In this document: piece by piece, positions 10,641-63,704 of the stretch
Layout of the letters: every line of letters begins with the position of its first letter
Position numbering within the stretch: the stretch's first letter is position 1
Source: Eledone cirrhosa
Taxonomy: Eukaryota
DNA: 64,000 bases
Assembly (NCBI GenBank): GCA_964016885.1
Contig: OZ024751.1
Coordinates: forward strand, 52,452,001 to 52,516,000
Direction of reading: 5' to 3'
The notes under the pieces: generated by a model
What the model was told of the DNA's origin: nothing
Databases searched by the model: none
Seen by the model: the letters and a program-made list of their open reading frames with translations, nothing else
Made by a program: the position numbers and the translations under genes

Positions 10641-11434
10641 AGACATTTTTAATAAAGCCGCCCCTTATAAAGCCCTTAAGAACAGCGGTTTTACAGAAAA
10701 AATTTATTATTTACCTACTCCCCCCCCCTAAAACTAACCACAATAACAGGAAAAGGAAGATTATTTGGTTCACACCCCTCTTCTCTCTAACTGTCAAAAC
10801 TAATGTAGGAAGGAAATTCCTTGAACTATTAGACAAACATTTTCCTCCTAATCATAGATACTATAAGATATTTAATAGGAACGTAGTCAAGATCAGCTAC
10901 TCTTGCTGCCCATCTATGAAGTCCAAAATCACCAGCTCAAACCGGACGAGAATAAATCCAGGATGCAGTTGCAGGAAGCCGGACGAATGCCCATTGCAGG
11001 GTAGATGTAACACTAAATCTGTCGTTTATGAGGCTATGATAACACCAGTAATCAACAACCAGCCAGCCAGGAGTGAGCGATATGTCGGTATGACCCAGGA
11101 CAGGTTTAAAACCAGATTTTACTCACATGTCGCTTCTTTTAAGCACTCCGATAAACGAACATCAACGGCCCTCGCAAGTAAGGTGTGGGAACTCAAGGAT
11201 AGTAACATCCCGTACTCTATTGATTGGTCTATATTAGACCATTCGAGGGAGTACCAAAGGGGCACAAAGAATTGTTCTTTGTGTACCACAGAAAAGTATA
11301 GGATTTTGCTAAACTTGAGAGACACTTCCGCTTGCCTTAATTCAAAGACTGAGATCTTCAGATGCTGTCCTCATCTGAGACCGCACCTGATCTGTAACTG
11401 GATTGACACTCCTATGAGAAATCAACCGCCTTGA
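10641..11434 (+). pseudogene. 5'-truncated PLE ORF: RT thumb, Cys linker, GIY-YIG endonuclease
   Basis: RKIIWFTP..KHFPPNHRYYKIFNRNVVKISYS, CSCRKPDECPLQGRC, VVYEA..RYVGMT..FKTRFYSH..CSLC..EK. Confidence 0.9.
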
Positions 11435-11834: not shown

Positions 11835-11894
11835 CTCATCCTGAAGATTGTATGAAAAATTTTTTTGCTTTTAAGAAACCCTTGGTAAATGGAA
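11835..11894 (+). ncRNA. Degenerate second hammerhead in family A UTR (inverted copy about 9600-9660)
   Basis: CTGAAGA 11841-11847, GAAA 11875-11878, acc-ctt-ggt-A; stems I and II imperfect. Confidence 0.5.
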
Positions 11895-12060
11895 TAATTG
11901 CCTTATGTTGCTTTAATACTTTACTACTATATATACGTATATGTAAGGTCCTTATGATTTATCTAAGATTGAGTTTTACATACACACACGCATATACGTG
12001 TGTGTATGCGTATGCATGTGTGTGGGCGTGGTTGTGTATGTGTGTATATGTGTATATGCA

Positions 12061-13264: not shown

Positions 13265-13324
13265 TTTCGTTCTGAGGATTGAAAGCAAAACCTTTTGCTT
13301 TTAAGAAACCACTGGTAAATGGAA
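13265..13324 (+). ncRNA. Type I hammerhead ribozyme
   Basis: Stem I tttcgtt/aatggaa, CTGAGGA 13272-13278, stem II ttgaaagcaaaa/ttttgcttttaa, GAAA 13305-13308, short stem III acca-c-tggt, GUA site at 13315-13317. Confidence 0.82.
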
Positions 13325-15678: not shown

Positions 15679-15698
15679 TATATATATATAATAATAAT

Positions 15699-18600
15699 TG
15701 TTTCGTCCGCGGATGGCTAACATAACCCTATCTCCTCCCGCCCCCCACCACCCCCACCCTCCAAACGCAACCCAAAACTTCAGAGTTGGTACCATAAATG
15801 TAGGCACCCTAAAGGGTCGCGCTAACGAGGTTGTAGAAATGCTTGAACGTAAGGAGGTCGATGTTTGTTGTATTCAAGAGACCAGGTGGAGGGGTGGGTC
15901 TGCTAAATTCATTGAGGGTAAAAAACGATGTTATAAGCTTTTCTGGGTGGGAAACGACGATGGGCTGGGTGGAGTAGGAATCATGGTAGCAGAAAAGTGG
16001 GCAGATAAGATAATAGACATAAATAGAGTGAACGACAGAATAATTAAAATAAGACTTGTCCTCAATAGAACTACGGTGACAGTAATATCTGCGTACGCAC
16101 CCCAATCCGGACTGCCCGGCACTATAAAAGACAGATTCTATGAGACACTGTTGCTAACTACCTCCCAAATATCTGACAGTGACTATATAATTATTGCAGG
16201 CGACCTAAATGGTCACGTTGGACAACATTGTGACGGCTACGACGAAATCCATGGAGGCTATGGGTTTGGTACTAGAAATGAGGAAGGCTCCAGAATTCTG
16301 GAATACTGTGATGCAAATAACCTAACTATCTGTAACACTAACTTCAAAAAACGTGACAATCACCTGATTACCTATAGATCCGGGGAACACACAAGCCAGG
16401 TAGATTATATCCTTACCAGAAGACGTGACAGAGTGTCTGTTGTAAACACTAAATCCCTCCCCCATGAAGAATGCACCTCCCAACATAGACTGATAATTAG
16501 CGACCTCATAGTCAGGACGAGACGTACCCGACAGCAGAAGAGGACTATCCTCAGGAGGAAAATATGGAAACTAAAGGACCCCACAGCCAGAAATAAATTT
16601 CAAAGCATATTACTTGATGCTTTCGACAGTAAGGAAGAGCATCTAGAATCGGACAATATAGAGGGACAGTGGAAATTTCTGAAAGCAAACCTGCTGTTGG
16701 CGACAGACGAAGTCTGTGGCTGGAGCAGGCCTGTAGGCAGGAGGAGAGTAACATGGTGGTGGAACAATAGGGTGGAGGGGTCAATTAAGGCCAAAAAGCA
16801 GGCTTGGAAAGTATGGCGGGATGGGGGAAGTAGAGTAGACTATCAAGTGGCCAGGAGGGAAGCTAGGAGAGAAGTGTACTTAGCAAGAAGGGAAGCTGAG
16901 GAAAGAAAGTTCAAGCATGTTCTACAACGCGATGACCAAAAACGTGAGGTGTTCAGGATTGCCAGGCAATGCGTCAAGGAAAACCGTGATATTGTCAGGG
17001 AGAAGTGTGTACTTAACGATGATGGCATACTTGCCATCACCGACACTGATAAGAAGGTAGCTTGGAAGTGTCACTATGAAAGGCTACTAAATGAGGAGAA
17101 TAAATGGGAGAAAGACAGTCTCCCCCATATCGACCCGATAGAGGGACCAGCAGTGTTAGTCGAGGGGAGTATAATAAGTAAGGCAATCAAGGATATGAAG
17201 ACTGGTAAGGCGGCTGGGCCTTCGGAAATAGTTGCTGAGATGCTGAAGGCATCTGGCACGGTGGGACACACCATGGTCACCCGCATAGTTAACCAAGTCG
17301 TACAGAATGGGGTTGTTCCGAAGGACTGGCATAGCAGCATCATCGTTAACTGTTATAAGGGTAAAGGAGACGCCCTAGATAGGAGTAACTATAGAGGCAT
17401 TAAATTAATCGACCAGGTCATGAAGGTCACGGAAAAAGTAATAGCGCAACTAATCAGAGAGAGAATTGATCTAGATGAAATGCAGTTCGGGTTTGTGTCA
17501 GGCAAAAGCACCACAGACGCTCTTTTCATAGTACGACAACTACAGGAGAAGTACCTAGCTAAAGGTAAACCCCTCTACTTAGCTTTTGTCGACCTGGAGA
17601 AAGCCTTCGACAGAGTCCCCCGCTCCATTATCTGGTGGGCTCTTAGAAAACTAGGCGTTGACGAATGGCTTATGAGGGCTATACAAGCCATGTATAAAGA
17701 AACAGTCAGCAAGGTTAGAATTAACAACGAATATAGTGAAGAGTTTAGCGTAAAAGTTGGCGTCCATCAGGGCTCTGTTCTCAGCCCCCTACTATTTATT
17801 ATTGCCCTTCAGGCTATAACAGAGGAGTTCAAGACAGGCTGCCCATGGGAACTCCTATACGCAGACGACCTGACACTCATAGCGGAATCAATGGCCGAGC
17901 TAGAGAAGAAATTCCAAACATGGAAGCACGGCCTAGAGTCAAAAGGACTTAAAATTAACCTGGCTAAGACCAAAGTTCTAGTTTGTAGGAAAGAAAACAA
18001 GGCGGCGGTCCCTTCTGGGAAATGGTCGTGCTCGGTATGTAGGAAAGGCGTAGGTAGAAACTCCATCTTATGTCCTAAATGCAAAGTATGGGTGCATAAA
18101 AGATGTAGTGGGATCACAGGTAAGCTAACTAAGAACATAGACTTTACATGTGGCCGGTGTTCTGGTGCAATAAGTAGCAACAAGTGCCCACAAAATACTA
18201 GCTCTTTCAATTGCGCAGAGGGTTCTATAGAAATAGTGGACAGCTTCCGTTACCTGGGCGATAAAATCAGCAGTGGGGGAGGGTGCTCTGAAAGTACTGT
18301 AGCTAGAGTCAGAACTGGTTGGAAAAAGTTCAGAGAGCTTATACCACTATTAGCTGCTAAAGGGTTCTCCCTAAAAATGAAAGGCAGGTTGTACGATGCC
18401 TGCATACGAACAGCAATGTTGCATGGTAGTGAGACCTGGGCATTGTGTGCAGAGGATATACGCAGACTAGAGAGGAACGAAGCTTGCATGCTCCGCTGGA
18501 TGTGTAACAGTAATATACGTGAACGGCAAAGCATAAACGAACTAAGGAAAAAATTAGAGATAAGAGGGATCAGATGTTGTTTACTCGAGAGAAGGCTGCG

Positions 18601-19170
18601 TTGGTATGGACACGTGATGCGCATGAAAGTCGATAGCTGTATTACAAAGTGCAGGGCAATAAAGATAGACGGTAGCCACGGAATAGGCAGACCTAGAAAA
18701 ACATGGGATGAGCTGATAAACTCCGACCTCACACACTTACACCTCTCCAAGACAATGTCACTGGACCGTGACCTTTGGCGGTACTCAGTAACAGAGAAGA
18801 CCCGCCTTGCCAGTAGGCATCTCTAACAAACTACACCCCGTCCCGCCACCCCCCCACCCCATCCACACCACCCCGTTCTATGTAAAATTATGTTGGTACC
18901 GCGCCATCCAGGCCGAAACAAATGAGATCGTGTAGGTGTCACGACAAAAAAACACACAGTCCACGCTGTAATGTGGCCGTGTAGGCAACACGGTAAAAAC
19001 CTCCCAGACCCACACTGTAAATGTGGTTGGTGTTAGGAAGGGCATCCAACTGTAGAAAACCTGCCAGACAGTCCTATGCGAGCAAGACAATCACTCTTGC
19101 CTCAAGTGGGACTACCCCCGTCCAAACCCATGCAAGCGTGGAACACGGACGTTAAACGTTGATGATGATG
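15699..19170 (+). mobile_element. RTE-clade LINE with complete ORF
   Basis: Single APE-RT ORF, about 340-nt 3' region, (GAT)n tail, inserted in (TA)n; almost no 5' UTR present. Confidence 0.93.
15713..18826 (+). CDS. RTE polyprotein: AP endonuclease, reverse transcriptase, PHD-like finger (1037 aa from first ATG)
   Basis: INVGTL, IQETRW, AGDLNGHVG, VDYIL, SQH; FVDLEKAFD, GVHQGSVLSPLLF, YADD; LRWYGHV; no stops. Confidence 0.93.
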   Translation: MANITLSPPAPHHPHPPNATQNFRVGTINVGTLKGRANEVVEMLERKEVDVCCIQETRWRGGSAKFIEGKKRCYKLFWVGNDDGLGGVGIMVAEKWADKIIDINRVNDRIIKIRLVLNRTTVTVISAYAPQSGLPGTIKDRFYETLLLTTSQISDSDYIIIAGDLNGHVGQHCDGYDEIHGGYGFGTRNEEGSRILEYCDANNLTICNTNFKKRDNHLITYRSGEHTSQVDYILTRRRDRVSVVNTKSLPHEECTSQHRLIISDLIVRTRRTRQQKRTILRRKIWKLKDPTARNKFQSILLDAFDSKEEHLESDNIEGQWKFLKANLLLATDEVCGWSRPVGRRRVTWWWNNRVEGSIKAKKQAWKVWRDGGSRVDYQVARREARREVYLARREAEERKFKHVLQRDDQKREVFRIARQCVKENRDIVREKCVLNDDGILAITDTDKKVAWKCHYERLLNEENKWEKDSLPHIDPIEGPAVLVEGSIISKAIKDMKTGKAAGPSEIVAEMLKASGTVGHTMVTRIVNQVVQNGVVPKDWHSSIIVNCYKGKGDALDRSNYRGIKLIDQVMKVTEKVIAQLIRERIDLDEMQFGFVSGKSTTDALFIVRQLQEKYLAKGKPLYLAFVDLEKAFDRVPRSIIWWALRKLGVDEWLMRAIQAMYKETVSKVRINNEYSEEFSVKVGVHQGSVLSPLLFIIALQAITEEFKTGCPWELLYADDLTLIAESMAELEKKFQTWKHGLESKGLKINLAKTKVLVCRKENKAAVPSGKWSCSVCRKGVGRNSILCPKCKVWVHKRCSGITGKLTKNIDFTCGRCSGAISSNKCPQNTSSFNCAEGSIEIVDSFRYLGDKISSGGGCSESTVARVRTGWKKFRELIPLLAAKGFSLKMKGRLYDACIRTAMLHGSETWALCAEDIRRLERNEACMLRWMCNSNIRERQSINELRKKLEIRGIRCCLLERRLRWYGHVMRMKVDSCITKCRAIKIDGSHGIGRPRKTWDELINSDLTHLHLSKTMSLDRDLWRYSVTEKTRLASRHL

Positions 19171-19831: not shown

Positions 19832-19882
19832 AGTTTAAGCAAAGAATCGCTGCTTTCACCCTTAACGGGATCTTCTGAAACT
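19832..19882 (-). ncRNA. Hammerhead-like fold with CAGAAGA core
   Basis: Same sequence as 56294-56344. Confidence 0.65.
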
Positions 19883-20795: not shown

Positions 20796-22167
20796 CTATC
20801 CGTTAGGGTATAACGTGGGGCTGTAATACAGGAAAGTTTTGTGCAAATTGCCTCAGATTTTTTGTTTAAGATGTGGTCTGTGGTGTAGAGTATTTCCAGT
20901 GTAACTTATATTGGGTGTGGTTGTCTTTTAGACTCCAGATATAAGCTGAAAGTGACGTCATATTCATATCATAACGAAAAGAATGGGTATGCATGTAAAG
21001 ACGCTGCTTGAATCTATTGGTGGTTAACCCTATGTAGGCCCTACAGGACGTGGGTGTTTCAACCTTACATTTGTAGACAATGTTACTAGAGAGACATTTC
21101 CCGGATAGGGGGCAATCAACCCAATTCCTACAATTACAGTTAGTACTAACTACAGGGTTGCACGTGTTCCTACGGTTAGGTAGTTTAGCTAAATTTGAAG
21201 CTGTGATGTTATGTGCAAGGTTAGGAGTCGTAGAGTAAGAAATTTTAATATTATTTCTATTAAAAATTTTACTATATTTATGTGTAGGGGGAAAATGCTT
21301 CGTAATAAGGGAAGGAAAGATCTTAGCTAATGGTGTGGCCACCTCCATATTATATGGTGGGTTATACCAACAAATGCGACGGGATCTATTACTTCTAGGT
21401 CTATTTTCGTACTCTGTATATGCTACCTTATCGACAAATCCACTCCGAGCAAGAGCTTCATTGTAATAAGTGCAATGGTCGTTGAAAATATGCTCGTTAG
21501 TAGATAGACGGGAAAGCCTCAACGAAACGTTTCTTACCAGGTTCTTGGTTATGCTGGCAGGATGGTTGGAATGCTTACTTATGTAATTAAGCGTATCATT
21601 CGGCTTTCTATACGGGTAATACAACCCATTCGATAAATTGAGGGTAACGTCGAGGTAATTAACGACCGAGTGATTGGCCTCAACCTGTATAGAGAGGTTG
21701 AAGCCTTTAAAGAAGGCTGTGAGTTCTTTTCTGAACCAGTAGCAAGCACGAGGTCCGCACTTAGTCATGGTCAAAAGACCATCATCACGGTACAAACCAC
21801 CGCCCCCGTTGGGGAATTCGTCCTTGATAGAGAAAAGAAGGAAAAGGCCGATAAGATCAGTAACCTCCGCAGAATCGCTAGCGCCCATACTCACGTCGAA
21901 TGGGGTACTATTGGATTTTTTAATCCAAATAGAGTCGTCGAAATTAATCACCAACTTACGGGCATTGAGGATGACATCAACTTCGAAATCCTTAACCACT
22001 GTGAGTGTTTTAGCGAAATTGATAGCTCTAAGGAGAAGTGGTAAAGTGATGGAGGAGTAGTAATTGTTGATGTCGAATTGGATAAAACGGCAATGTTCCT
22101 TGTTGCATATGCCGTTGAACCAAACAATCACCGCGAAAGAATTGTTCCACAGTGCAAGAGGGGCCAA
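20796..22167 (-). pseudogene. PLE reverse transcriptase plus GIY-YIG, 5'-truncated, deletions in EN
   Basis: FIQFDINNYYSSI, VSMGASDSAE, GLYRDDGL, NYLDVTL, CNCRNWVDCPLSGKC, IVYKC..AYIGLT..FKQRLYMH. Confidence 0.92.
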
Positions 22168-22325
22168 ACTTCCCCGTTAAGGGTGAAAGCAGCGATTCTT
22201 TGCTTAAACTTTAATCTGTTATTTTAATAAATATTTGCTCTACGGTTCTTATATATTTGATATATATTTATCCTTATCGAGCCCTCTTTGGATTTTAATC
22301 TTCAAATTTATTATTATTACTATTA

Positions 22326-32570: not shown

Positions 32571-32779
32571 AAAATACAGAGACCAAAATCCAAAGAGGAC
32601 TCGACAGTGGTTGTATATATTTAAGTATATATAAACTCATAGAGCAAATATTTATTATTAGAATAGATTAAAAGTTTAAGCAAAAAACTTTCGCTTTCAC
32701 CCTAAGCAGGATCATCTGAAGCTTAGGGTAAAAGCAGAAGTTTTTTGCTTAAACTTTTAATCTACACTAATAATAAATA
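32571..32779. mobile_element. Mini fold-back PLE end related to family B, with CAGATGA hammerhead fold (32672-32724, minus)
   Basis: Tail on left, arms about 32648-32707 and 32721-32779; similar to 22172-22300. Confidence 0.75.
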
Positions 32780-33811: not shown

Positions 33812-34213
33812 TTTATTTACATGGTCCATTATATTTTTTCCGTGCATTGAAAAAGAAATCACGGTAGCAAAACAAATGTAACCAGAAAAAGAACTATTGC
33901 TGCACTTACAAATTGTTATGCTGGTATCTAGCATGATAAATATCTCTGTTCTTACAAATTCCATGTCAAAGAAATAAACTGAATTAATAAATAAAAACAA
34001 ATATTTAAAAAAAAAATAATTAATAAAAAAAAAAGACTGACCAAATTCTATTCCTCTGGTGACAGTTTAAAAATACCTGAATTAGATTTCAAATACTATT
34101 AAATATCAAAATTCCTTCTTCCCCCCTCCTCCTCTTTCTACACTTCGTCCTTCCCCTCCTCTTTCCCCCTCTTCCAATAGTCTTCCTCCAATATTCCATA
34201 CAATGTTTTTAGT

Positions 34214-44326: not shown

Positions 44327-46069
44327 TTATGTAGTCTATTCATCTACATTCATACAATACGACGGATTTATTTAATCAAAGTTTATTAATTCCCAATACT
44401 GTAAGGAATATAATGTATTCGATTATTTTACTGATTGTGGTCACGTTTATAGTTAATACAAGAATAGGACACCAAGCTTATATATACTGTATATATATAT
44501 TTGTAAAAGTTCGTTGATATCTATGTTACAAAAGACATCTAGGCAATTGAAAGACACCTACAATGTATGTTAATAAGTAATACTGTCTATATATGTATGG
44601 TATATTGTCTATGTATGTATATATTGTGTACTGTCTGTATGTATGGTATATTGTTTCTGTATGTATGGTATATTGTTTCTGTATGTATATATGGTATACT
44701 GTCTGTATGTATGGTATATTGTTTATGTATGTATATATGATGTACTGTATGTGTATATATGATACACTGTCTGTCTATATGATGTACTGTCTGGCTATAT
44801 ATGTATGGTATGTCAAGACAACAAACGGGAAGTGTTGTGTATATTTCGTGGTCAACAAGAATTTTTGTGGACCTAAATATATAAAAATATAAATCACTGA
44901 ACTTAGGTAACTTTTTTTTTTTTTTACGATACTCGTTTCAAAGACGAGTGTAATTGTAGACATTAAAAAAAACTACGGTTTTACATTATTTTCATAGTTT
45001 TTTTTTGTTTTGTTTTTTCATGTGCTATCAACTAATCTAATCTCCAAGATTCTGACAATCGACTTTTTTCCCTGAGAACGCAGAACTACGTTAAGGATGT
45101 GTGTGTTTGTTAGAATACCCAGCACGTTAATTTCATTGGCAATTATCTGTTAATTGGAACACTCATCTTAGGAACCGACGGAGGTCCAACACACATTCAC
45201 ACTCACATAAATAGGTAGATATAATAGTTTCTAATTTGGGGTACAAGGCTAGTAATTGGAGTAGAAAGTAAAGTCGATTGTATCGACGCCAATACTTGAC
45301 TGGTACTTTATTTTATCTTCCACGGAATGATGAAAAGCAAAGTTGACCTCGGCATGATTTGAACTCAGAAAGTAGAGAGCCTGAACAAATTGTGTGTGTG
45401 TGTGTGTGAGAGACAGAGAGAGAGGTCTTCTGTGTTCACTTCTTCCAGGTACTTAGCTTTTTTTTTATACGGTAGTATATCAGATGAGCTTTTGGTTATC
45501 AAATGTCTGACCTAATGGCACCACTTAGACTGTCCAATTATTGTTATAAATAGACAACGAATTCATGCTTTCTCCCATCCACTCAATGACGGTGAGTGGT
45601 ATGGCTTAAGAGAAGGAAGGTTGGAAGTCAGGAGGGAGGTGTTTATATATATATATATATATATACATACATAGTTCACGATTAAAAAATACAAACACAG
45701 ATACAATTACACAAAGCCTTATTAGTTTTATGCATGTCTGAAATGAAAATGAATATCTCAATGTATTGGACGTTGGTCTTTCATCGGGAAAGAGGTTGAA
45801 AAATTGAAGGGAAAAAGTGTTTATCGGGATGTGTGGAGTGGTCGTGGAGCGTCTGTGTCTATCATTGATGTCTGTGTGCGATGAGACGCATTTTGTGAGT
45901 GTATGTTCTTAAAATTTCATGTAGATCTCTCTATATATATATATCTATATATATATATATATATAGGTATTAAAGTTTCCGTTGGAATTGAAAAAGTCAT
46001 AGGAGTGAAGAGTGCTCTATGTAAGTACCAGAGCAAAATTTAATGTATAATAAACAATACAATATAATT

Positions 46070-46141
46070 ACCTCATTACCAGAGGTTTCCCGAATAAGAC
46101 GAATACGAAAGAAACGTCCTCATTCGTTCGTCGGACAAGGC
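46070..46141 (-). ncRNA. Hammerhead fold with CCGACGA core (inverted copy of 53397-53468)
   Basis: Near-identical reverse complement. Confidence 0.7.
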
Positions 46142-47365
46142 AATATAAAACATAGTGAAATATTTGGAAAGTCTCCTCAAGAAATGCAAAAAAATATATA
46201 TATATAAATAAAGGTAATGCAATAGACATATAAAATATATAAAAAAATATAAGGAAATATAGTTAGTTGTGTGTATATGTATGTACAAATGCGTGTGTAT
46301 GGTGAAAATGTGTGCGTAAGTACATATATGAGGGCAAGTATATTTGTGTATATGTAACCACAAATACGGATGTAATCTAATTGACACCAATCCAGAAGCA
46401 GGTATTAGATACACATATAAGTATGAAAGCACGCGTATAAACACACACACACGCGCGATCACTTATATGCGGAAGATAAAGAGGGAAGGGAGTGTAATAG
46501 TTAAAAGAAAGTGTCATTCTCGATATATGTATAAAAATTAAACAATATGTGAGAAAGAAAAAAATTTTAAATGAAAGAGAAAGTAGTCAATTAACACTAG
46601 AGAAAAGAAAAGAAAAGAAGATACACGCGTACATACACATATATCTATTAAAAACCATATATCTATAAGAAAACATATATATACATGCAATACGTACAGA
46701 CAAAAGCGTATGCATGCGTACATACTTACACAGGATGCACGCATACATATACATACATATCGCCCCATGTATATCTATTCGCACGTACGTACGCGACTGT
46801 ATATATATATATATATATATATATACACGCACACATACACATCCATACATACAATACATATATACACACAAACATATTTACGTACATTGACCCCCTTACA
46901 GACATACACATAAAAATAAGAATGTAAAAAACATAGATATAAAAACACACATACATACACATATATATATACACGCGCGCATACGGAGGCGTTCGTGTAC
47001 ATATACAGAACGTATACACACATAAAGACGCTCAGACACATAGATACAGGGTGTAAAGCAGCCTTATGAATAAATGGGTACAAATATAAAAATATAAAAT
47101 TGGCTGCGAAATAACAGAAAATATCTGGAGTGGAAAACGCAAGTGAACTGTTCAATCAGGTAGTAAAGAAAATAGGTAAGTAAAAAGTGGAAAGTGAAAA
47201 TATTAGGTAAGTGAATCGAAGGATAAAGTAGGGGGAGGGGTTACTGGTGGATGTGAAGTAAAAATAAAAATAAAAATAAAAATAAAAATAATAATAAGGT
47301 TAAAAATGAAAGTAAACCAGAAAGAGTAGTCTTTAAAGAGAATAATTTAAGTGAAGAATAAGAGC

Positions 47366-47719
47366 TTATGGAGGATAAGTATCTGAAAGTGAGTTAAGTT
47401 TATATGAGCTGGAAAGCAAGTGTGATTTCATGTGTGGGCAACTGGTAAACATTTCTGTCTTTGTACTTAGGCAGGTTTTTGGTGATTTAAGGTTTTGTAA
47501 AATCCAATATTTTTCATTTATGCAGAGTGTGCATTTTCTTGTTCCTCTTGCATATTCTTTAGATTGGTTCAAAATTGACCAATCCAATTTATATTGGATA
47601 CCTTGGTCTTTCAAATCCCATATTCTGCTAGCCAGAGCTGTTGTGAATCTTTTTTCTGGATGTCGAAAGGATGCGACATGTGAGTAATAACGCGTTTTGA
47701 ACTTGTCTTGTGTCATACC
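47366..47719 (-). pseudogene. PLE GIY-YIG C-terminal half, split from its N-half (51932-52036) by the Gypsy insertion
   Basis: GMTQDKFKTRYYSH..CTLCINEKYWIL..SCPH. Confidence 0.85.
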
Positions 47720-48001
47720 TGTGGTTAGAAAAAGCTATCTCACTTACCGCTTTTCACAGGCGCCGCTAAATTCCACTGCAGGTACTCCTCTTCCACGTGC
47801 GTCCGACTGCTTAACACCGGGAGCTGCCCAAAACGCGTCCTCACCGTATGCTGGTCACCACTAGAGAGAGGCCCTCTCCTGGCCCTTCATGTCGAGCATC
47901 CTTCCGGTCAAAGACCCCTTCCGGTCGAGCACTCAAAAACCCCTTCCGGTCGAGCACTCCCCCCCCCCCCCCCGGCCACCGCACGCCACACCATACCCAC
48001 A
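47720..48001 (-). repeat. 3' LTR (TG...CA)
   Basis: Matches 51657-51931; internal tandem ccttccggtcgagca units. Confidence 0.9.
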
Positions 48002-48014
48002 CGCCCCCCTGATC

Positions 48015-50897
48015 TCAAGGATCAATTTCCCCCTCGTCCCTCTGCATATGAAAGTCTGCCGTCCAGGTCGGTGGTCTACGACTTCGTTGCGATCTTCGTA
48101 GTATTGGGGCAGGGCTCTGGGTTTCCACCTCATCTTGGGTTTCCTCTTCCTCGTAGTCCGTCGATACAGTGATTCTTCTTACATCCAGGACATGACGTGG
48201 TACCCCGTCCACGGACACATTGTTCTTTGAATTTACGGCCGTCACCGTTCCCCTTCCCCATTGAGATGTGCACCGTGCATCTGGGGGCTTAACCCAGACT
48301 TCTTCGCCCACCTGCACGAATGCACTCTCTCTCCCCACTGGCCGTTGTGGTGGCGTGCTCGGGTGCCGCCACTCGTATTTGAATACTGCTCTGTGTGGCA
48401 CCGATTCCTCGACCTGTCCAACCCGAGGGGACATATTGTACCAGAACACTGCCTCCATTGGTGAGATATGGCCCCGCTCCGTCATTGCCTTGATCGTCCG
48501 GTGGTGTCGCTCCACGATTCCATTCCCGCTCGGCCTGTGCGCCGCTCTGAAGAAACGGTCCACCTTCCATCCCTCGAGCATCCCCCTCAGTGCCTCCGAG
48601 CGGAACGCTGCGCTGTTGTCCATCAGCAGTTCATCCACAGGGCCCCGCTCCAAGAACACCTCTCTCAACGTCCGCACGATTTCCTCGGCCGTTCCAGTCT
48701 TCATCTCCCTCCATATCACCACTCGACCTGGTCCACAGTCGACCATCGAGAGGTACGTTCCCTGCCGGTAGTGCGTCACATCCACCGCTAATCGCTTCCA
48801 GTCGCGATCCACCGGGAGGCTTCCCGTTTCGTGTACACCCGGGGCGGGATCAATGGACTGACATCGGACGCAGCCTCTAACGACCCCCCGAACACTGTGT
48901 CTGCTAACGTCCGAGTCGATTCTCCTGGCTAGGAACAGACTCCTATCCACCCCCATGTGGTGCATGTCATGCAACCCCTTCAGGTCTAACTCGGTCAGCC
49001 GACACACGGCAGCTAGCTCATCCTCTACCTCCTCCGGTGCTTCCATCCAGGCTTTCTTCACTCTAGTTAAGATGTCCGCCCTATTTTTCTCTGAAGGCAC
49101 GAACACTACGCTCAGCTTCAGGTCGAACTCGGTGGCCAGCTCTCCTAATGTTCCCAGGCGGCGCTTTATCAGCATCTCCGCCGCGCCTCTCGTTCGCACT
49201 CTCTTCTCACTGGTGAGCACTGATCTTACCCATCCGAGTACGGTAGCCGAGTCGGTGCGTATCTCGATGGTGCGCAGCCCCCACCGCAGGGCGAGGTTCA
49301 CCCCTCTCAACACCGCGTCCAGCTCGGCCACATTGATGTGGCTGCAGTCGTCCTTCTTTCTAAGCCAGGCTGCATCCTCGACCTCAACACCTCCTATCTC
49401 CAACGTGACACCCAGCGCTATGCTGCTGGCATCGCACCATACGGTCCCGCTCCGTGATTTGGGAACGTACCAGCGTCCCCGCACTGGGTCGTCGGCCTTC
49501 ACCCTCCCCACGATCTCCTGCATCATGGCCACCGTTCTCTCTCCCACTCTGTCACTCCAAGTCACCCCTCCCGCTCGTCTCTTGACATAGCTGCATGCCG
49601 TCCGGAGCCACCCAGCGATCGGGTAGTGACCCACCAGCTTTCCACACACCGAGAAAAGCTCCCGCCTATTCATACTTGGGCTCAGTTCCGGAACTTCGTT
49701 TCCCCTCTGGAACACCAAAACGCCCGTCTTATCTCGCCGTAGCCTAAGTCCCAGCGCGGCTCCTCCCTCCAATGCTTCTGATGGCTTCGCAGTCAGTCCA
49801 TACCTCCGCAAATGGTTCGTGACCTCCGCCGTCGACACCACCGACTCGTCCACTAGGATGTCGTCAATGTAGGAGTTAGTAGCCCTCTTTATCTTGTCGG
49901 CCCTCCCCAGAGCGGTCTTGAGGACCGCCGCCATGATCTTCGGTGCGGAGCTCAGCCCGAAACCGAGCCTGGTCAGGCAATATGTCCGGCCCTTATACCT
50001 GACCAGCTGATACCGCCAGAGCTTCTCATCTATATGCAACTGCAAGTAAGCCGACTTTAGATCCACGATCGCTGACCCCCCCCCCCCCGTCATGCGTCTC
50101 CACTCACGCAGGGTTTCCCCACAGACATCCGTGACCTCACCACCCGTGTGGCATGACACGTGCTCGTTCAGCTCTCGATAGTCCAGCACCGGCCTCACCT
50201 TGCTCTTCGTGGGTTGCACCACCGCCATCAACGGCAATACTCCGCACTTCACCTCCTCCTTCCAGGGAAGCAGTATGCCCTCTTCGATCCATCTCTCTAC
50301 TTCTCGCTCGAACTCGCCCCTAGCGTTTCCCTTCAATGTGTGTTGATAGCAGCCCACTTTGGTCTTCAGTGTTTGTGGTTCTCCCTTCCAGTACCACTCA
50401 ACAACCCATCGCTGCCCATCAAACACGGCCTTGAAGTCCTTGTCCTGTACAGTGTAAGCGGGGTATTGCTCCTCGTGGGCCTTCTGGTTCTCATGACGTG
50501 CACTCACAGCGCATACCGATGCAGCGGCGCCAAACGACACACCGACATTGTTCACCGTGACGCCCCCTAGACGGCCAATCGCGTCCATGCCCATAACCAC
50601 GCCGATCCCATCCACCACACTGTCTACCACGATGGCGGAAAGCCTTATCGTCCTTCCCCGTACCGCTATTTCCATCTAGCTGCGACCTCGGCATTCAATT
50701 TTCCTGCCGTCGACTGCCCTTACGCTGCTCTTCCCTCCCCACCTCTGCGCCACCCCCGCGGTCACCAGTGTCGTCGTACAGCCCGTATCCACGAGGGCTC
50801 GCTGTGGCTTCCCCCTCACGAAGACTTCCACCACGGGCAGCACCGCTACTCGTAAGGGGCAACTACCGGCGCAGTAGTTCCCCTTGGACCGTTTCCC
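48015..50897 (-). pseudogene. Gypsy pol (protease, RT, RNase H, integrase), one in-frame TAG at 50676-50678
   Basis: ALVDTGC; IVDLKSAYLQ, LGFGLSSAP, YIDDIL; WCDAS; HDMHH..CVRC, VDVTH, LMDNS, GIVERHHR. Confidence 0.9.
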
Positions 50898-51597
50898 TGG
50901 TCGCAATTAGTAGCGATGTGGCCTGGTCGCTTACACCGGTAGCAAATTATATCCGGCTTCGACTCTCTACAGTCTCTAGCCATATGCGGGCCATGACACC
51001 TAAAATAGCGGCCCTTAAATTCTCGCGAACGGCCGCGTGCCGAGGTTGCCTCCCTTTGACCATTCCGCTGCCAGGTGTCCTGAGCCTCCGTAGTCGCTAT
51101 CGCCACGACACTCTTTTTGGCATCTTCCGTTATGATCCGGGCTTGTTCCACCAGTGAACGCATTTCCATCTCCTTGTACCCCGGGACTTGCTGCAGTTTC
51201 ACCGCTATTCACCATTGATGAATGCCAACCGCACCGTGCGTTCGCATTCCGCCTGGTAACCCGCCAACATAGCCAACCGCCTTATTTCCGCTGCGAAAAT
51301 GTCGACGCGCTCACCATTCCACCTGATTCTCGCCAGCTTAGCAAAAGCCGCCAACGGTCCCTCGGCGAATGCATCCATCAGACGCCTCTCAATCTTCTGC
51401 ACATCTCTTTGGCTGTGCTCGTCCAACTCAAGGAAGAGTACCAACGCGTCGCCCTCGAGGTACAATGCAATGAAACCGGCCACGTCTTCTATCTTCTGCA
51501 AGCCCGCGACCAGCCGAACCTTCCGCAGCCAAGCGACAACATCACCTTCCCCGGTGAATGGCCTGATAGCTTCGTTCATCCGTAGTCTTGTCGCCAT
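50846..51597 (-). pseudogene. Gypsy gag with frameshift near 51205
   Basis: RPFTGEGDVVAWL start; CYRCKRPGHIATNC zinc knuckle plus a degenerate second knuckle. Confidence 0.85.
50854..50897 (-). promoter_or_regulatory. -1 programmed ribosomal frameshift signal
   Basis: G GGA AAC heptamer in gag phase, 5-nt spacer, hairpin aaggggaactact/ggtagttgcccctt; pol is in the -1 frame. Confidence 0.8.
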
Positions 51598-51656
51598 CTT
51601 CTGATTTGTTTTGCGGCAAGTGTTTTCTTTTTTTTTTTTCAGTCGCCGAAATAGCT

Positions 51657-51931
51657 TGTGGTTAGAAAAAGCTATCTCACTTACCGCTTTTCACAGGCGC
51701 CGCTAAATTCCACTGCAGGTACTCCTCTTCCACGTGCGTCCGACTGCTTAACACCGGGAGCTGCCCAAAACGCGTCCTCACCGTATGCTGGTCACCACTA
51801 GAGAGAGGCCCTCTCCTGGCCCTTCCGGTCGAGCATCCTTCCGGTCAAAGACCCCTTCCGGTCGAGCACTCAAAAACCCCTTCCGGTCGAGCACTCCCGC
51901 CCCGCCCCCGGCCACCGCACGCCACACCATA
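51657..51931 (-). repeat. 5' LTR, outer 6 nt missing
   Basis: Matches 47720-47995. Confidence 0.9.
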
Positions 51932-52599
51932 TCGTTCATTGGTGGCTGGTTGGTTGTTGCTGATGGTTGTCACTTTAGCCGCATATACAATGGCTTTGGT
52001 ATTGCATTTACCTTGTAATGGGCATTCACTTTTGACTCTACAGGAGTCTACATTCAAAAGTGAATGCCCATTACAAGGTAAATGCAACACCAAAGCCATT
52101 GTATATGCGGCTAAAGTGACAACCATCAGCAACAACCAACCAGCCACCAGTGAACGATATGTGGGTATGACACAAGACAAGTTCAAAACGCCTTTATTCT
52201 TCGATTCACTTACCTAATATCTTCACTTTCCACTTTTTACTTACCTATTTTCTTTACTACCTGATTGAACAGTTCACTTACGTTTTCCACTCCAGATATT
52301 TTCTGTTATTTCGCAGCCAATTTTATATTTTTATATTTGTACCCATTTATTCATAAGGCTGCTTTACACCCTGTATCTATGTGTCTGAGCGTCTTTATGT
52401 GTGTGTATACGTTCTGTATATGTACACGAACGCCTCCGTATGTGCGCGTGTATGTATGTGTGTTTTTATATCTGTGTTTTTATATCTGTTTTTTACATTC
52501 TTATTTTTATGTGTGTGCGTGTAAGCGGGTCAATGTACGTAAATATGTTTGTGTGTATGTGTGTATATATGTATTGTATGTATGGATGTGTATGTGTGC

Positions 52600-52697
<98 letters not shown>

Positions 52698-53396
52698 TCG
52701 CGTACGTACGTGTGAATAGATATACATGGGGCGATATGTATGTATATGTATGCGTGCATCCTGTGTAAGTATGTACGCATGCATACGCTTTTGTCTGTAC
52801 GTATTGCATGTATATATATGTTTTCTTATAGATATATGGTTTTTAATAGATATATGTGTATGTATGCGTGTATCTTCTTTTCTTTTCTTTTCTTTTCTTT
52901 TCTCTAGTGTTAATTGACTACGTTCTCTTTCATTTAAAAATTTTTTCTTTCTCACATATTGTTTAATTTTTATACATATATCGAGAATGACACTTTCTTT
53001 TAACTGTTACACTCCCTTCCCCCTTTATCTTCCGCATATAGGTGATCGCGCGTGTGTGTGTGTTTATACGCGTGCGTTCATACTTATATGTGTATCTAAG
53101 ACCTGCTTCTGGATTCATGTCAACTAGATTGTATCCGTATTTGTGGTTACATATACACAAATATACTTGCCCTCATATATGTACTTACGCACACATTTTC
53201 ACCATACACACGCATTTGTACATACATACATATGTACATTTGTGAGTGTATATACATACATATACACACACCTAACTATATTTCCTTATATTTTTTTATA
53301 TATTTTATATGTCTATTGCATTACCTTTATTTATATATATATATTTTTTTGCATTTCTTGAGGAGACTTTCCAAATATTTCACTATGTTTTATATT

Positions 53397-53468
53397 GCCT
53401 TGTCCGACGAACGAATGAGGACGTTTCTTTCGTATTTGTCTTATTCGGGAAACCTCTGGTAATGAGGT
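53397..53468 (+). ncRNA. Hammerhead fold with CCGACGA core
   Basis: Stem I gccttgt/atgaggt, CCGACGA 53404-53410, long stem II cgaatgag.acg/tgtcttattcg, GAAA 53449-53452, acc-tct-ggt, GUA site. Confidence 0.72.
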
Positions 53469-53493
53469 AATTATATTGTATTGTTTATTATAC

Positions 53494-53540
<47 letters not shown>

Positions 53541-53545
<5 letters not shown>

Positions 53546-53739
53546 AAAAAGTATGACCCCGACGGCAGAGCTCAATCCGTTTCGACGGCTATTTCTGGCA
53601 TGTCCAGAAATAGCTGTTGAAACGGTTTGAGCTCTGCCGTCGGGATCATACTTTTTCCTATTTCCCACTCTACTACCCTAAATATTGAGTACTCTGGTGC
53701 GTTATGGTCCATCTGGTTCCTTACCACAATTCCTTTGTT
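53541..53739 (+). mobile_element. Mini fold-back PLE end
   Basis: 58-bp arms 53541-53598 and 53604-53661; GAAAcgg..ccgTC half-hammerhead; tail 53662-53739. Confidence 0.78.
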
Positions 53740-53750
53740 ATATATATATA

Positions 53751-56355
53751 GTAATAATAATAAAATTGAAGACTAAAATCCAAAGAGGGCTCGATAAGGA
53801 TAAATATATATCAAATATATAAGAACCGTAGAGCAAATATTTATTAAATAACAGATTAAAGTTTAAGCAAAGAATCGCTGCTTTCACCCTTAACGGGATC
53901 TTCTGAAACTAACAAAGTCAATCTGTAAACGCAGAACTGGATATTTCAAAAAACGTTGCAACCGGAGGAAGACAGGAAGACGATACTTTGGTTCGTGGTA
54001 ACGTTCGCTGGCAAAGAACGGGAAAAAACGAATAATACGTCATTAATAGGAGCGGTGAAAAACGATTACGCGCAAAGACAGAACCACGTTTATGGTATAA
54101 AAGAGGTCATAGACTAATGTTCTTTTAGGTGGAGCATAGAGACGTTCTCTGGCAATGAACGAAAAAACGAAGATAATAAGTCATATGTGGAGCGTGGAGA
54201 ACAATAGCACGCAAAGACAAAACCACGTAAATGGTATAGCAGAAATCGTAGACTAAAATTCTAACTAGGAGACCAAATGAATCTCTGCTACAGAGTTAAG
54301 AACAAAGTAAATAAATACAATACAGAAGTAATAGAAACATTTGTAGACAACGTTACTAGAGAGGCATTTCCCGGATAGGGGGCAATCAGCCCGATTCCTA
54401 CAATTACAGTTAGTACTAACTACAGGGTTGCACGTATTCCTACGGCTAGGTAGTTTAGCTAAATTTGAAGCTGTGATGTTATGTGCAAGGTTAGGAGTTG
54501 TAGAGTAAGAAATTTTAATAGTATTTCTATTAAAAATTTTACTATATTTATGTGTAGGGGGAAAATGCTTCGTAATAAGGGAAAGAAAGATCTTAGCTAA
54601 TGGTGTGGCCACCTCCATATTATATGGGAGTTAAACCAACAAATGCGACGGGATCTATTTCTTCTAGGTCTATTTTCGTACTCTGTATATGCTACCTTAT
54701 CGACAAATCCACTTCGAGCAAGAGCTTCATTGTAATAAGTGGAATGGTCGTTGAAAATGCGCTCGTTGGTGGAAAGACGGGAAAGACTCAACGAAACGTT
54801 TCTTACCAGGTTCTTGGTTATGCTGGCAGGATGGTTGGAATGCTTACTTATGTAATTAAGCGTATCATTCGGCTTTCTATACGGGTAATACAACCCATTC
54901 AATAAATTGAGGGTAACGTCGAGGTAATTAACGACCGAGAGATTGGCCTCAACCTGTATAGAGAGGTTGACTCTAGTAACGTTGTCTACAAATGTAAGGT
55001 TGTAACACCCACGTCCCGTAGGGCCTACATAGGGTTAACCGCCAATAGTTTCAAGCAGCGTCTTTACATGCATACCCATTCTTTTCGTTACCCTCTAAGA
55101 AGGAATATGACGTCACTTTCAGCTTATATCTGGAGTATAAAAGACAACCACACCCAATATAAGTTACACTGGGAGATCCTAGCTAGGGCTAGATCGTATA
55201 ACGGAAATAAAAGACCATGTGACCTCTGCGCCGCTGAGGCCTTGGAAATACTCTACGCCACAGACCACATCTTAAACAAAAAATCTGAGGCAATTTCGAC
55301 TTGTAAACATAAATTGCACAAAACTTTCCTGTATTACAGCCCCACGTTATACCCTAACGGATAGTACGATCTATACGTGGATATTTTACGTCTTGATGTG
55401 GGAGCTAAGTATATGTTTTGTTTATTCCTTTACTTATCTGCATAGGTAAGTATATATTACCCGTATGTTTTGTGAAGGTATGTATACCTTCTCGTACGTA
55501 TATTTGATTGTTATGGCGTATAATTTTTATATTCTGGTATTTAGGGTTTGGCTATGTGTATACGGGAGTTTTGCGTCTGCGTGAGTATGCAGGTTCGTAC
55601 GTATGGTGGGTGTGTGTATATGTGTACTTCTTGTTTTAGTTGACTTACGTCTCCGAACATTCGTGTATTTATATGTAGGTATGTGTGTGCGCTTGTTATA
55701 TACGTATTTATTTACTTATATACGCTTATATAATTATTTATTTATTTGTACACAAGCATACACACACACACACACATATTTATATGTGCGTGGTTTTGTA
55801 TACCTATGGTAAGGTTTTGCGTATGCTTGTGATGTACGTACTTGTTTGCGTGTATGTATTTATTTATTTCTATTACTTCTGTATTGTATTTATTTACTTT
55901 GTTCTTAACTCTGTAGCAGAGATTCATTTGGTCTCCTAGTTAGAATTTTAGTCTACGACTTCTGCTATACCATTTACGTGGTTTTGTCTTTGCGTGCTAT
56001 TGTTCTCCACGCTCCACATATGACTTATTATCTTCGTTTTTTCGTTCATTGCCAGAGAACGTCTCTATGCTCCACCTAAGAGAACATTAGTCTACGACCT
56101 CTTTTATACCATAAACGTGGTTCTGTCTTTGCGCGTAATTGTTTTTCACCGCTCCTATTAATGACGTATTATTCGTTTTTTCCCGTTCTTTGCCAGCGAA
56201 CGTTACCACGAACCAAAGTATCGTCTTCCTGTCTTCCTCCGGTTGCAACGTTTTTTGAAATATCCAGTTCTGCGTTTACAGATTGACTTTGTTAGTTTCA
56301 GAAGATCCCGTTAAGGGTGAAAGCAGCGATTCTTTGCTTAAACTTTAATCTGTTA

Positions 56356-56361
<6 letters not shown>
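53751..56361. mobile_element. Penelope-like element family B, inverted insertion
   Basis: Left minus arm: tail, hammerhead (53860-53910), UTR to 54336, deletion, RT thumb and linker to 54970; right plus arm 54971-56361 with EN (AYIGLT..CDLCAAE..CKH), UTR and hammerhead. Confidence 0.9.
56294..56344 (+). ncRNA. Hammerhead fold with CAGAAGA core
   Basis: Stem I agttt/aaact, CAGAAGA 56299-56305, t-ccc-gttaa-ggg-t, GAAA 56319-56322, stem III agca/tgct, CUU site. Confidence 0.65.
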
Positions 56362-56418
<57 letters not shown>

Positions 56419-56421
<3 letters not shown>

Positions 56422-56644
56422 AGGTGTATTATTGGTTGTTGTGTTAAACGGTCCAATAAAATTTTTGTTAGCAATATTAAGTTCTCCACGCTTTTGTATA
56501 TCTCCAATTCCATTTATGGGAACAGCTAGATGATGTAAAACGGAGTATTTGTATCAAAATAAAGATCCGAAGGCATGGTATAAATTTCCAATCATTTAAA
56601 ATGATTGGAAATTTATACCATGCCTTTGGATCTTTATTTTGATA
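56419..56644. mobile_element. Mini fold-back PLE-like end
   Basis: 46-bp arms 56552-56597 and 56599-56644; extra tail 56419-56551; TA flanks. Confidence 0.65.
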
Positions 56645-56705
56645 TATATAGTGGTGGAACACTGGAAGGTAATATCCGTAGTGGTAGAGCACTCAGTCCA
56701 AGGGA

Positions 56706-56763
<58 letters not shown>

Positions 56764-56860
56764 TATGCTGTAATGAATGTTGACCCACAATATTTGCATA
56801 TGTATCTGTATGTCTCTTGGGTGAAAAGGAGGTCATATAACTGTTCATTCATTAATAAAT

Positions 56861-56907
56861 TGCTCCGAAGAATCCAAACCTCGGTTTGGAGGAAACAGTT
56901 GTAAGCA
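56861..56907 (+). ncRNA. Hammerhead fold with CCGAAGA core
   Basis: tgct-CCGAAGA-a-tccaaac-ctcg-gtttgga-g-GAAA-cagttg-TA-agca; all three stems pair. Confidence 0.75.
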
Positions 56908-57589
56908 CAAAAATGTTTTGAACAGTTCTTTGATTCTTATATTTCATATATATATATATATGCCTTCTACTTCATTATATATAGTGTGTCCACAAAAAAT
57001 GTATACACACTTTGATTACTTGTACAGACAATATTAGAATGCTGTGGAAGTATGTGTCCATAATGTATATATATATTATATATAATATAATATAGTAAAA
57101 GGCAATAAGGTTATATAGTTCACTACATTTCATTTATCACGTAATAGCTGTTAAACACATTTCCAGTAAATTTCGGGGAATGGAAATCGATTAAATCAAC
57201 ACCAGTTCTTGACTGCTACTTTATTTTATCGACCACAGAAAGATGAAAGGCAAAATTGATCTTGACGGGGATTGAATTCAGAACTTAAAAAGCCGGAATA
57301 AATACTGTTAAGCATTTAGTCCGACACCCTAACGCCTCTACCAATCCTCCACCCTCATCATAGCCATAATAATCTGATATATTACATCCATGTGTTCTCA
57401 CATGTAGACGCACGTTCTCTACCATAGTGTTGTGTCCCTAAACGAAGCTTATTTCCTTTAATAGTTACAATGTAATTTGTCTGCAGTATGTATACAATGA
57501 GATATGATTAAAATTTATTTTTCTGACCGTAGGATATAGTTTGAATGAAAGTATAGGTCCCCTTGATCAAAGCTGACTCAGAGTTTATC

Positions 57590-59930: not shown

Positions 59931-60075
59931 CAATCCGACCTGTACGTACGTATTTATGTGTGTGTGTGTGGCATATTCATCCTATGATTTGAAGTTGTAC
60001 TTCACTATTCAAACAGAACTCAAAACTATAAGTTTCTTGTATTGAATATGTCACTATCTATAAAACAACTTTTGT

Positions 60076-60135
60076 GTTTATATCTGATGAGGCATACCAA
60101 AAATGTTGGTACCCTTGAAATATATATAATAAATA
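60076..60135 (+). ncRNA. Minimal hammerhead, same family as 4956-5016
   Basis: CTGATGA 60084-60090, taccaa/ttggta stem II, GAAA 60117-60120, TATATA stem III. Confidence 0.6.
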
Positions 60136-63397: not shown

Positions 63398-63653
63398 AGG
63401 AGGTGAGTTTTATTGTAGTACAATAAAGCAATGCAGATATCGGATAAGAAGCACTCTACAGTTTGTAGGACTGGAGTATGCATAATATAAGATCAAAAGA
63501 TGGTTAAAGGAGTTCCATGTATTTTATTATGCGCATTTCAAAAACAAACATCATCATGCAATAATATTTGTGTTTTCATCAGATAAAACAGGAGAACATG
63601 ATATGAAGGCTAAAAAACACTTGTGGATAGTGCAGTTTTAAATCAACATACCC

Positions 63654-63704
63654 AGATTCCTGATGATTTCTAATGAATGAAACAGTTCTAGTCCTGTAGA
63701 ATCT
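63654..63704 (+). ncRNA. Type I hammerhead ribozyme in a PLE 3' remnant (about 63398-63790)
   Basis: agattc-CTGATGA-t-ttc-taat-gaa-t-GAAA-cag-ttctagtc-ctg-TA-gaatct; tail motif follows at 63726. Confidence 0.85.

Follow-up and report, generated by a model that had tools for sequence, protein, structure and literature searches.

The window analysed here, i.e. the whole stretch of 64,000 nucleotides, contains an insertion of a Hydra-type Penelope-like element (PLE), designated family A, that consists of two inverted arms. The left arm (45966..47719, minus strand) comprises the end of a GIY-YIG frame with its stop at 47366, a microsatellite-rich 3' UTR of 1.2 kb, a hammerhead motif and the tail; the fold-back junction (51928-52161) and the right arm, delimited together as 51932..53498 on the plus strand, end in (TA)n. 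The insertion was split by an LTR retrotransposon (47721..51931, minus strand; RT-like, RNase H, integrase and DUF7047 parts), whose LTRs differ by 1.5% and which is outside the ribozyme system. Where the 3' UTR of its own frame ends, about 40 nt upstream of the (TA)n junction, family A carries a type I hammerhead (53394..53471, plus strand) with a CCGA core and A.G at positions 10.1/11.1. Its stem I has 10 bp, including four G.U pairs (53394-53403 with 53462-53471), the narrower limits of 53397-53468 given earlier corresponding to a 7-bp version of that stem; the core CCGACGA occupies 53404-53410, A10.1 is 53411, G11.1 is 53448 and GAAA is 53449-53452; stem II is long, stem III has 3 bp, and the GUA site places the cut after 53461. 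In the computed best fold, pairing between the core and the 3' strand of stem II is possible. The corresponding hammerhead of the left arm (46067..46144, minus strand), which served as the reference stretch for the alignment of public reads, differs from the right-arm copy by 1.3-3.6%, and since both arms stem from a single insertion, families A and B represent two independent events rather than three.

Family B is a solo 3' fragment (56761..56946, plus strand) flanked by two (TA)n runs. Its hammerhead (56861..56907, plus strand) has a stem I of 4 bp, the core CCGAAGA (56865-56871), A at 56872, a stem II of 7 bp, G at 56891 and a GUA site with the cut after 56903, and the fragment includes a distal stem I helix of 9 bp (56839-56847 with 56919-56927). 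Family B is present as a single copy without an attached frame, and a blast search of the window and of 94 loci revealed no second copy. All three motifs (53394-53471, 46144-46067 and 56861-56907) thus lie where the original prediction had located them, each with the CCGA core and the A.G apposition that it had described.

The motifs of families A and B are real type I hammerheads. Three helices surround the core, the ends lie in stem I, and C3-G8, G5, A6, A9, G12, A13, A14, A15.1-U16.1 and H17 are present in all three copies; the departures are C instead of the required U4 and A.G instead of the 10.1/11.1 base pair (usually G-C), both in both families. A relaxed descriptor matched the window at 10 places, whereas 40 dinucleotide shuffles gave 0.175 matches on average, and a chance motif was rejected; with stricter stems none of the 40 shuffles gave a match, and a one-mismatch scan found 9 matches in the window and 0 in 5 shuffles. 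Two relaxed-scan matches near 34123-34151 and three core-only model matches (4933, 60075 and 31289) were not counted as hammerheads. A non-LTR retrozyme was likewise rejected, the copies being single or inverted and placed at PLE ends with no tandem array of short units, and no relative was found in viral contigs.

Folding calculations did not set these motifs apart. The hammerhead fold of A and B lies 2.6-3.4 kcal/mol above the minimum-energy fold, which is inside the range of 0.5-4.2 kcal/mol obtained for the canonical-core motifs of the window, so that minimum-energy folding gives no separation of variant from canonical motifs; placing U at position 4 did not rescue the fold in the model. 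The computed stem III self-dimers amount to -5.1 (A) and -3.4 (B) kcal/mol. The original prediction also held that standard descriptors would overlook the variants, and this stands for a descriptor that demands CUGA. Rfam misses them too. No Rfam hammerhead (e.g. RF00163) was among the 41 matches at E up to 10 in 53330-57000, or among the matches listed (150 of 422) for the whole window; however, only 2 of 15 descriptor hits at 8 control loci were recovered by Rfam, and 12 of the 13 missed had CUGA, so the failure of Rfam on A and B is not due to U4C. With a covariance model derived from 47 other-host motifs, A (even with E allowed up to 1), C and D' went undetected, and the matches to B and D had E values of only about 0.04.

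Further families accompany A and B in the window. Family D has the core CAGAAGA (U4A) with U.U at 10.1/11.1 and a CUU site (56294..56344, plus strand; inverted arm at 53860..53910, minus strand); its second insertion (19832..19882, minus strand), 4.9% from the first, lies downstream of a Hydra-type RT-EN frame (20866-22176). The related D' motif (CAGAUGA, 32673..32720, minus strand; 5' side cut by a fold-back junction) differs from D by 13%, and A4 is retained in both despite that divergence, with N7 and wobble changes between them. The remaining motifs have canonical cores: C' (CUGAGGA with U-A closure, 13265..13324, plus strand; inverted copy with its core at 8212, minus strand), which is related to family A 3' of GAAA (22% apart); a remnant of family C (CUGAAGA, weak stem I, 11841..11900, plus strand; inverted copy with its core at 9653, minus strand) downstream of an EN frame at 10643-11434; E (CUGAUGA with U.U closure, 63654..63704, plus strand), which the other-host model finds at E 1.1e-5; and F (CUGAUGA with A-U closure, 63522..63590, minus strand). 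Position 4 has thus changed in three separate lineages and no other core base in any. The insertions of the window are young, with 1-5% between arms.

We place the motifs of families A and B in the 3' pseudo-LTR (pLTR) of Hydra-clade PLEs, and the assignment to Penelope-like elements made in the original prediction was borne out. The C and D frames have the full CxCx5C linker before a C-terminal GIY-YIG, and of the three linker cysteines of family A the second and third remain, the first having been lost at the fold-back; the family A EN piece is 55% identical to that of C. Insertion into (TA)n was found, as was, for A, a hammerhead within the pLTR. The RT evidence for Hydra in the window comes from the family D frame, whose RT motifs agree by eye with the printed Hydra alignment, A and B having no RT part in the window; B is filed under Hydra by its layout, its (TA)n ends and a weak match (E 0.039) to the other-host model. 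Pfam gave no name to any Hydra frame of the window and left the GIY-YIG domain uncalled. A bulged hairpin (GCUC ... GAGCACU; 46011..46034, minus strand) lies shortly beyond the point where family A ends on its 3' side. As a separate observation, Hydra elements of many hosts carry a covarying bulged hairpin, often in tandem, directly 3' of the element end.

Public reads allow the two deviations to be considered one at a time. At position 4 of family A, run X7 shows U in 581 of 747 reads (RAD reads at this position start at only about 58 places); the U share of contig depth is 38% in run X1 and 53% in X5, and the single X6 contig does not have U there; these shares are unphased, and contig depth is not copy number. 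Among the changes listed, none falls at C3, G5, A6, G8, A9, 10.1, 11.1, GAAA, stem III or the site; those listed concern N7, the loops, the bulge and positions at which G.U becomes G-C (46137 and 46096), the window copy having G.U where many relatives have G-C. Read alignments end at the borders of stem I (419 of a depth of 606 at 46066, and 208 of 785 at 46142) with mixed sequence beyond, i.e. sequence conservation of family A is confined to the ribozyme.

The mixture of C and U at position 4 means that CCGA is a subfamily trait and not a local mutation, and that A.G also occurs together with CUGA. A family consensus of CUGA, which the original prediction had taken as the mark of a merely local change, is half realised, CUGA being the majority in two of the three runs with useful depth. 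It could be argued that the family state proper is CCGA, from which CUGA copies arose by CpG decay, C4-G5 being a CpG at which C-to-T is expected, or conversely that CCGA is local decay; the unphased shares do suggest repeated change at position 4, as U4 exceeds a stem I variant in X1 and falls below it in X5. However, G5-to-A is not among the listed changes, the other listed CpG sites (46130 and 46116) change in 0-17% as against 38-78% at position 4, and C4 makes up 62% of the X1 depth, which renders either version highly improbable. Decay of single copies was rejected, as the original prediction had also maintained: many copies carry C4 while their other core positions are unaltered, and the runs in which they occur bear three organism labels.

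The original prediction went further and read U4C and A10.1.G11.1 as a coupled, compensating redesign of the core. In its favour, both uncommon states appear together in two families whose stems are unrelated, and since U4C occurs once and A.G never in 60 other-host motifs, finding the combination twice is remarkable; a one-way dependence, in which A.G permits C4, would be compatible with the data. Nevertheless, the linkage did not hold. Position 4 is U in 38-78% of reads or depth with no listed change at 10.1/11.1, so that most X7 reads combine A.G with U4; a consensus of the loose ends of 10 contigs has CUGA and, at 10.1, again the A of the window copy; L006 pairs CCGA with G-C closure after an extra A; and family D combines CAGA with U.U. 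No contact is known between positions 4 and 10.1/11.1. U4C and A.G are thus not linked, and a coupled redesign is improbable. A loose 10.1/11.1 pair is normal for the Hydra clade (28 of the 60 motifs: U.U in 27 and A.A in one), A.G being absent from the other-host motifs. As to whether position 4 departs from U more often in the window, the counts are 1 of 5 versus 1 of 60 without A and B (p 0.15, not significant) and 3 of 7 versus 1 of 60 with them (p 0.003), A and B being the families picked by the original prediction.

On balance, if with modest confidence, we favour an explanation in which one or more subfamilies carried a tolerated U4C substitution along as they spread, A.G represents the clade-typical loose pair as it occurs in this lineage, the two are independent, and the RNA still cleaves at GUA, slowly. 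The A and B motifs, in other words, look like tolerated and probably slower versions of a known ribozyme, not a new design. C4 would drop a U-turn contact and might thereby lower the rate; a metal site at the A9 phosphate uses N7 of 10.1, and A10.1 would keep a purine beside that phosphate. Cleavage could proceed in a dimer formed via the near-palindromic stem III or with the help of an element protein. Reverse transcription would start downstream of the cut site and would have to read through it, such that the template would be uncut or re-ligated RNA, and for that reason low ribozyme activity would be cheap for the element. It counts against this explanation that a young subfamily would retain an intact core whether or not it was cutting.

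The same consideration leads to a rival account, in which the C4 and A4 motifs are dead or nearly so, a changed master copy having been amplified with the ribozyme dispensable and the intact core reflecting youth. The low divergence between the arms, and the G.U of the window copy of family A, would fit. So would published work: in Poseidon from anole, ribozyme mutants were without effect on insertion in vitro (Frangieh et al. 2024, PMC11167929), and every single mutant in the CUGA region of a type III hammerhead examined by pairwise scanning was weak (PMC9901934). Naiads, moreover, persist at high copy number without canonical hammerheads. Against this, it is position 4 that was altered in all three lineages, D and D' have kept A4 and the remaining core over 13% divergence, the conservation seen in reads stops at the ribozyme borders, and natural CCGA ribozymes do cleave. 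We therefore regard loss of function as a serious contender that is nonetheless unlikely.

A more speculative reading, which we would put forward only tentatively, treats position 4 as a dimmer of Hydra-element hammerheads in this host lineage, with at least three separate reductions (two to C, one to A): a conserved bulged hairpin a little way downstream would set the start of reverse transcription, the RT would have to copy across the cut site, and fast cleavage would destroy the template. If this were true, the tandem hairpin would be an RT-positioning signal of the clade that accounts for the two 3' ends (the tail), and U4A would be a natural core variant of a kind that we did not find in print. 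The hairpin is in any case a ready candidate signal for internal initiation of reverse transcription and may outweigh the main finding. With regard to the role of hammerheads in PLEs, a family with both CUGA and CCGA copies and a CAGA neighbour would offer matched natural pairs for examining the need for cleavage. Descriptors restricted to CUGA undercount PLE hammerheads, and A.G closure broadens the known tolerance at 10.1/11.1.

Among known systems, Poseidon PAc of Anolis (Frangieh et al. 2024, PMC11167929) has a tail delimited by two internal RT start sites, both downstream of the hammerhead; uncut RNA is the main template and cleavage needs protein. It differs in belonging to another PLE clade, in its canonical core and in an RT start in an AC-rich stem loop inside the frame, and the tandem GCUC/GAGCACU hairpin does not appear in the portion of that paper covered here. 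Literature searches found no U4A or U4G hammerheads and, by title, no relevant paper for A10.1/G11.1 or for GAGCAC with Penelope; octopus, Penelope and hammerhead together led only to Craig et al. 2021. The minimal metazoan PLE hammerheads of Cervera and De la Pena 2014 (PMC4209133), likewise lie in pLTRs, have a long stem II and leave a base unpaired after A9; their short stem III was read as dimer-dependent, and activity in vitro was low. In them, however, a conserved G10.1-C11.1 pair comes next to the extra base, and the core variant reported is U3-A8, with neither U4C nor A.G found in the portion of the main text covered. Viroid-like hammerheads share U4C, and in the passages available CCGA cleaves in the ZV1 minus strand and in betaviroid-like 786 (both polarities), as well as in a PLMVd variant as cited by others; these belong to type III, have loop-loop contacts and reside in circular RNA replicons instead of genomic retroelements, and A.G closure is not mentioned in those passages. 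The Hydra pLTR hammerheads of Craig et al. 2021 (PMC8557442, File S2) have the same type I layout, near-palindromic stem III and GUA-type site, are placed 40-60 nt before the (TA)n junction and are commonly mismatched at 10.1/11.1, where U.U is frequent; exceptions to the base pair in the form of U.U have been published. By eye, all 26 Hydra rows of File S2 read CUGA, which the descriptor required, and none closes with A.G, whereas here two families have C4 and a third has A4, and stem II of family A is longer. Natural CCGA hammerheads that cleave are already in print for viroid-like RNAs; new here, as far as the literature covered goes, are the A.G closure, the occurrence of CCGA within a family of retroelements, and CAGA (U4A) in a third family of the window.

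The window is animal DNA rich in repeats, with microsatellites of a style that would suit a cephalopod genome, and inspection of its sequence confirmed all three motifs named in the original prediction. As had been claimed, they belong to two separate families of type I hammerheads with a CCGA core (U4C), A.G at positions 10.1/11.1 and a GUA site. These families, A and B, count as two independent cases, since the family A hammerheads at 46144-46067 and 53394-53471 are the arms of a single fold-back insertion (1.3-3.6% divergence). When the window was scanned with a descriptor that left position 4 and positions 10.1/11.1 unconstrained, 10 motifs were recovered, whereas 40 shuffles averaged 0.175 and, with stricter stems, contained no motif. 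The hammerheads of the window outnumber those originally listed and include families C, C', E and F, which have the CUGA core, as well as D and D', in which a CAGA core (U4A) is combined with a CUU site and with U.U as the closure at 10.1/11.1. Family D consists of three copies from two insertions (19882-19832 and 53910-53860, both minus strand, and 56294-56344, plus strand) and D' lies at 32720-32673 (minus strand); core, U.U and site are retained between D and D' despite 13% divergence. Families E and F, different canonical hammerheads, stand back to back on opposite strands at 63522-63704, and a decayed E-like copy lies near 35230-35190 (minus strand). A related pair at 4933-4866 (minus strand) and 60075-60128 (plus strand) combines CUGAUGA and a GGUACC-centred hairpin with changes in the right half of the core, and perhaps represents decayed hammerheads of an additional family.

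The layout, location and family variation of these hammerheads are demonstrated. The family A hammerhead terminates a 1.2-kb 3' UTR downstream of a frame whose C-terminal domain is a GIY-YIG, the CxCx5C linker is found in sister frames of the window, and the family D frame agrees by eye with the printed alignment of the Hydra clade of Penelope-like elements (PLEs) in the available part of Craig et al. 2021 (PMC8557442). Element ends are located in (TA)n. Family B is a 186-nt solo end without a frame, flanked by (TA)n runs on both sides and bearing an additional distal helix on stem I; judging from its layout and from a match to the model that is weak (E 0.039), it, too, may belong to Hydra. 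An LTR retrotransposon with DUF7047 (47721-51931; LTRs differing by 1.5%) later split the fold-back insertion, entering the family A element in its endonuclease part. Long fold-back palindromes occur at 32664-32779, 51928-52161, 56546-56650 and 53548-53654; several such palindromes sit at junctions between inverted PLE copies, and they produce spurious microRNA matches in Rfam. An intact non-LTR frame of 1042 aa, with an APE endonuclease, RT and then a PHD finger, occupies 15698-18826.

U4C and A.G had been proposed to be linked deviations of a maintained structural variant. For family A only, four public read runs (of nine listed) were aligned to 45968-46192 at 80% likeness; X5 and X6 are labelled as other organisms, and X1 is perhaps the window's own source. 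At position 4 (46133), run X7 has U in 581 of its 747 reads, and U makes up 38% (X1) and 53% (X5) of contig depth, these shares being unphased, with RAD reads beginning at about 58 places and depth not equal to copy number; the single X6 contig covering 46133 has no U there. Among the changes listed, none falls at 10.1 (46127), 11.1 (46090) or other fixed core bases; they are located at N7 and in the stem II loop and bulge, and convert two G.U pairs to G-C (46137, 46096). Across the loose ends of 10 contigs from X1 the consensus is CUGA, again with A at 10.1. Alignments of X7 often end at the stem I borders (419 of depth 606 at 46066, 208 of 785 at 46142), past which the sequence is mixed. CpG decay does not account for the C/U mix, because other listed CpG changes reach only 0-17% and the G5-side change is absent from the listing. 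With position 4 mixed and 10.1/11.1 free of listed change, the claimed coupling fails against the read data, and the proposal as a whole is supported in part. On these reads, C4 would mark one or more amplified subfamilies of family A, and A.G would be fixed throughout the family, unlinked to C4.

The protein alignment comprised 33 of 120 homologues listed plus the window frame (n = 34), and the alignment search retrieved 94 loci from other hosts (77 metagenome, 17 genome-collection), which lean young because they were selected for intact frames. A one-mismatch scan of these loci gave 63 distinct motifs, some lying in elements that adjoin a Hydra copy rather than in the copy itself, and none in two shuffles; 59 have an intact core, and U4C, C3U, G8A and A15.1G occur once each. 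The sole U4C case (L006:2650-2705) is a minimal-type hammerhead with CCGAAGA and an extra A before a G-C closure, and it precedes a Hydra frame by 345 nt. Closures in the 60 intact or U4C motifs are U.U (27), G-C (22), an extra base with G-C (5), A-U (3), G.U (2) and A.A (1), with A.G in none. Covariation is strong in all three helices of 47 motifs, 27 of which leave 10.1/11.1 unpaired; mismatch closure here is a habit of the clade. A non-U position 4 occurs in three of seven window families versus one of the 60 other-host motifs (p 0.003), and in one of five window families (p 0.15) once the two originally picked are removed. At loci L078-L094, Hydra-type retroelements with hammerheads lie inside contigs that are catalogued as bacterial; most likely these contigs are host DNA that ended up in the bins.

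Downstream of the hammerhead lies a covarying bulged hairpin, GCUC-Y-stem-loop-R-UH-GAGCACU, whose 3' heptamer follows 42 of the 57 hammerheads with 200 nt of following sequence. Scanning for the complete pattern yielded 84 distinct motifs, spread over 53 of the 94 loci (106 sense matches versus 4 opposite), frequently in tandem (32 pairs, spacing 59-83 nt; for example L019:316-348 and 378-411). The outer four pairs are built into the pattern and relatedness is uncorrected in the pairing counts: the first inner pair forms in 80 of 84 hairpins (C-G 52, U-A 26) versus a shuffled mean of 61.8 and maximum of 69, the second and third in 59 and 55 (shuffled 33). Window copies lie at 46034-46011, 8121-8098, 26643-26620, 7466-7432 and 7030-7002 (all minus strand) and at 7890-7913, with longer forms at 53834-53786 and 32645-32596 (both minus strand) and at 22237-22285. 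Here 5-10 nt separate the element's 3' end from the hairpin, and a second end in the reads lies about 74 nt further on, inside the tandem spacing range. At ten two-pLTR loci, the (TA)n junction is seen in four, 0-4 nt ahead of the first hairpin; four others reach the contig end and two diverge earlier. Four published Hydra consensi show the motif on visual inspection, Rfam at gathering score matched none of the hairpins in eight loci, and no description of it was found in the literature. We infer that the hairpin may be the signal that positions the RT for internal initiation, and it is likewise a candidate signal for the tail.

As for the ribozyme itself, cleavage at GUA would be slow, occurring as a dimer or aided by the element's protein; the stem III segments self-pair (-5.1 kcal/mol in A, -3.4 in B) and are unstable alone. 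Inserted copies reach about 35-43 nt beyond the cut site, so the cDNA was copied through it, from RNA that was uncut or re-ligated. With such a template a weak ribozyme may cost the element little, which would agree with position 4 having changed repeatedly.

Our literature searches turned up neither a PLE hammerhead with CCGA or CAGA nor any A.G closure at 10.1/11.1, although Lunse 2017 and several supplements may contain such instances. In the available portions of the sources cited here, Craig 2021 (PMC8557442) has CUGA in 26 of 26 Hydra rows, with U.U closure in 14 by our own count and A.G in none, while Cervera 2014 (PMC4209133) describes an additional base after A9, a conserved G10.1-C11.1 and a U3-A8 variant, with low activity, dimers included. 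Perreault 2011 reports that natural U4C reduces in vitro activity with viroid infectivity still possible, that U4 is contacted by the phosphate between A6 and N7, and that U10.1-U11.1 was already known. Mutants of the CUGA region were weak and rescued by the 3-8 swap alone (Roberts 2023, PMC9901934), and Frangieh 2024 (PMC11167929) found two internal sites of RT start, insertion unaffected by ribozyme mutants and a protein requirement for cleavage. Of particular interest are the naturally matched pairs, the family with U4A and the hairpin; the CCGA core is already known outside these elements, being present, in the available portions of those sources, in CtaHVd-LR1 variants and in zeta and betaviroid-like RNAs, and ZV1 and 786 transcripts cleave in both polarities.
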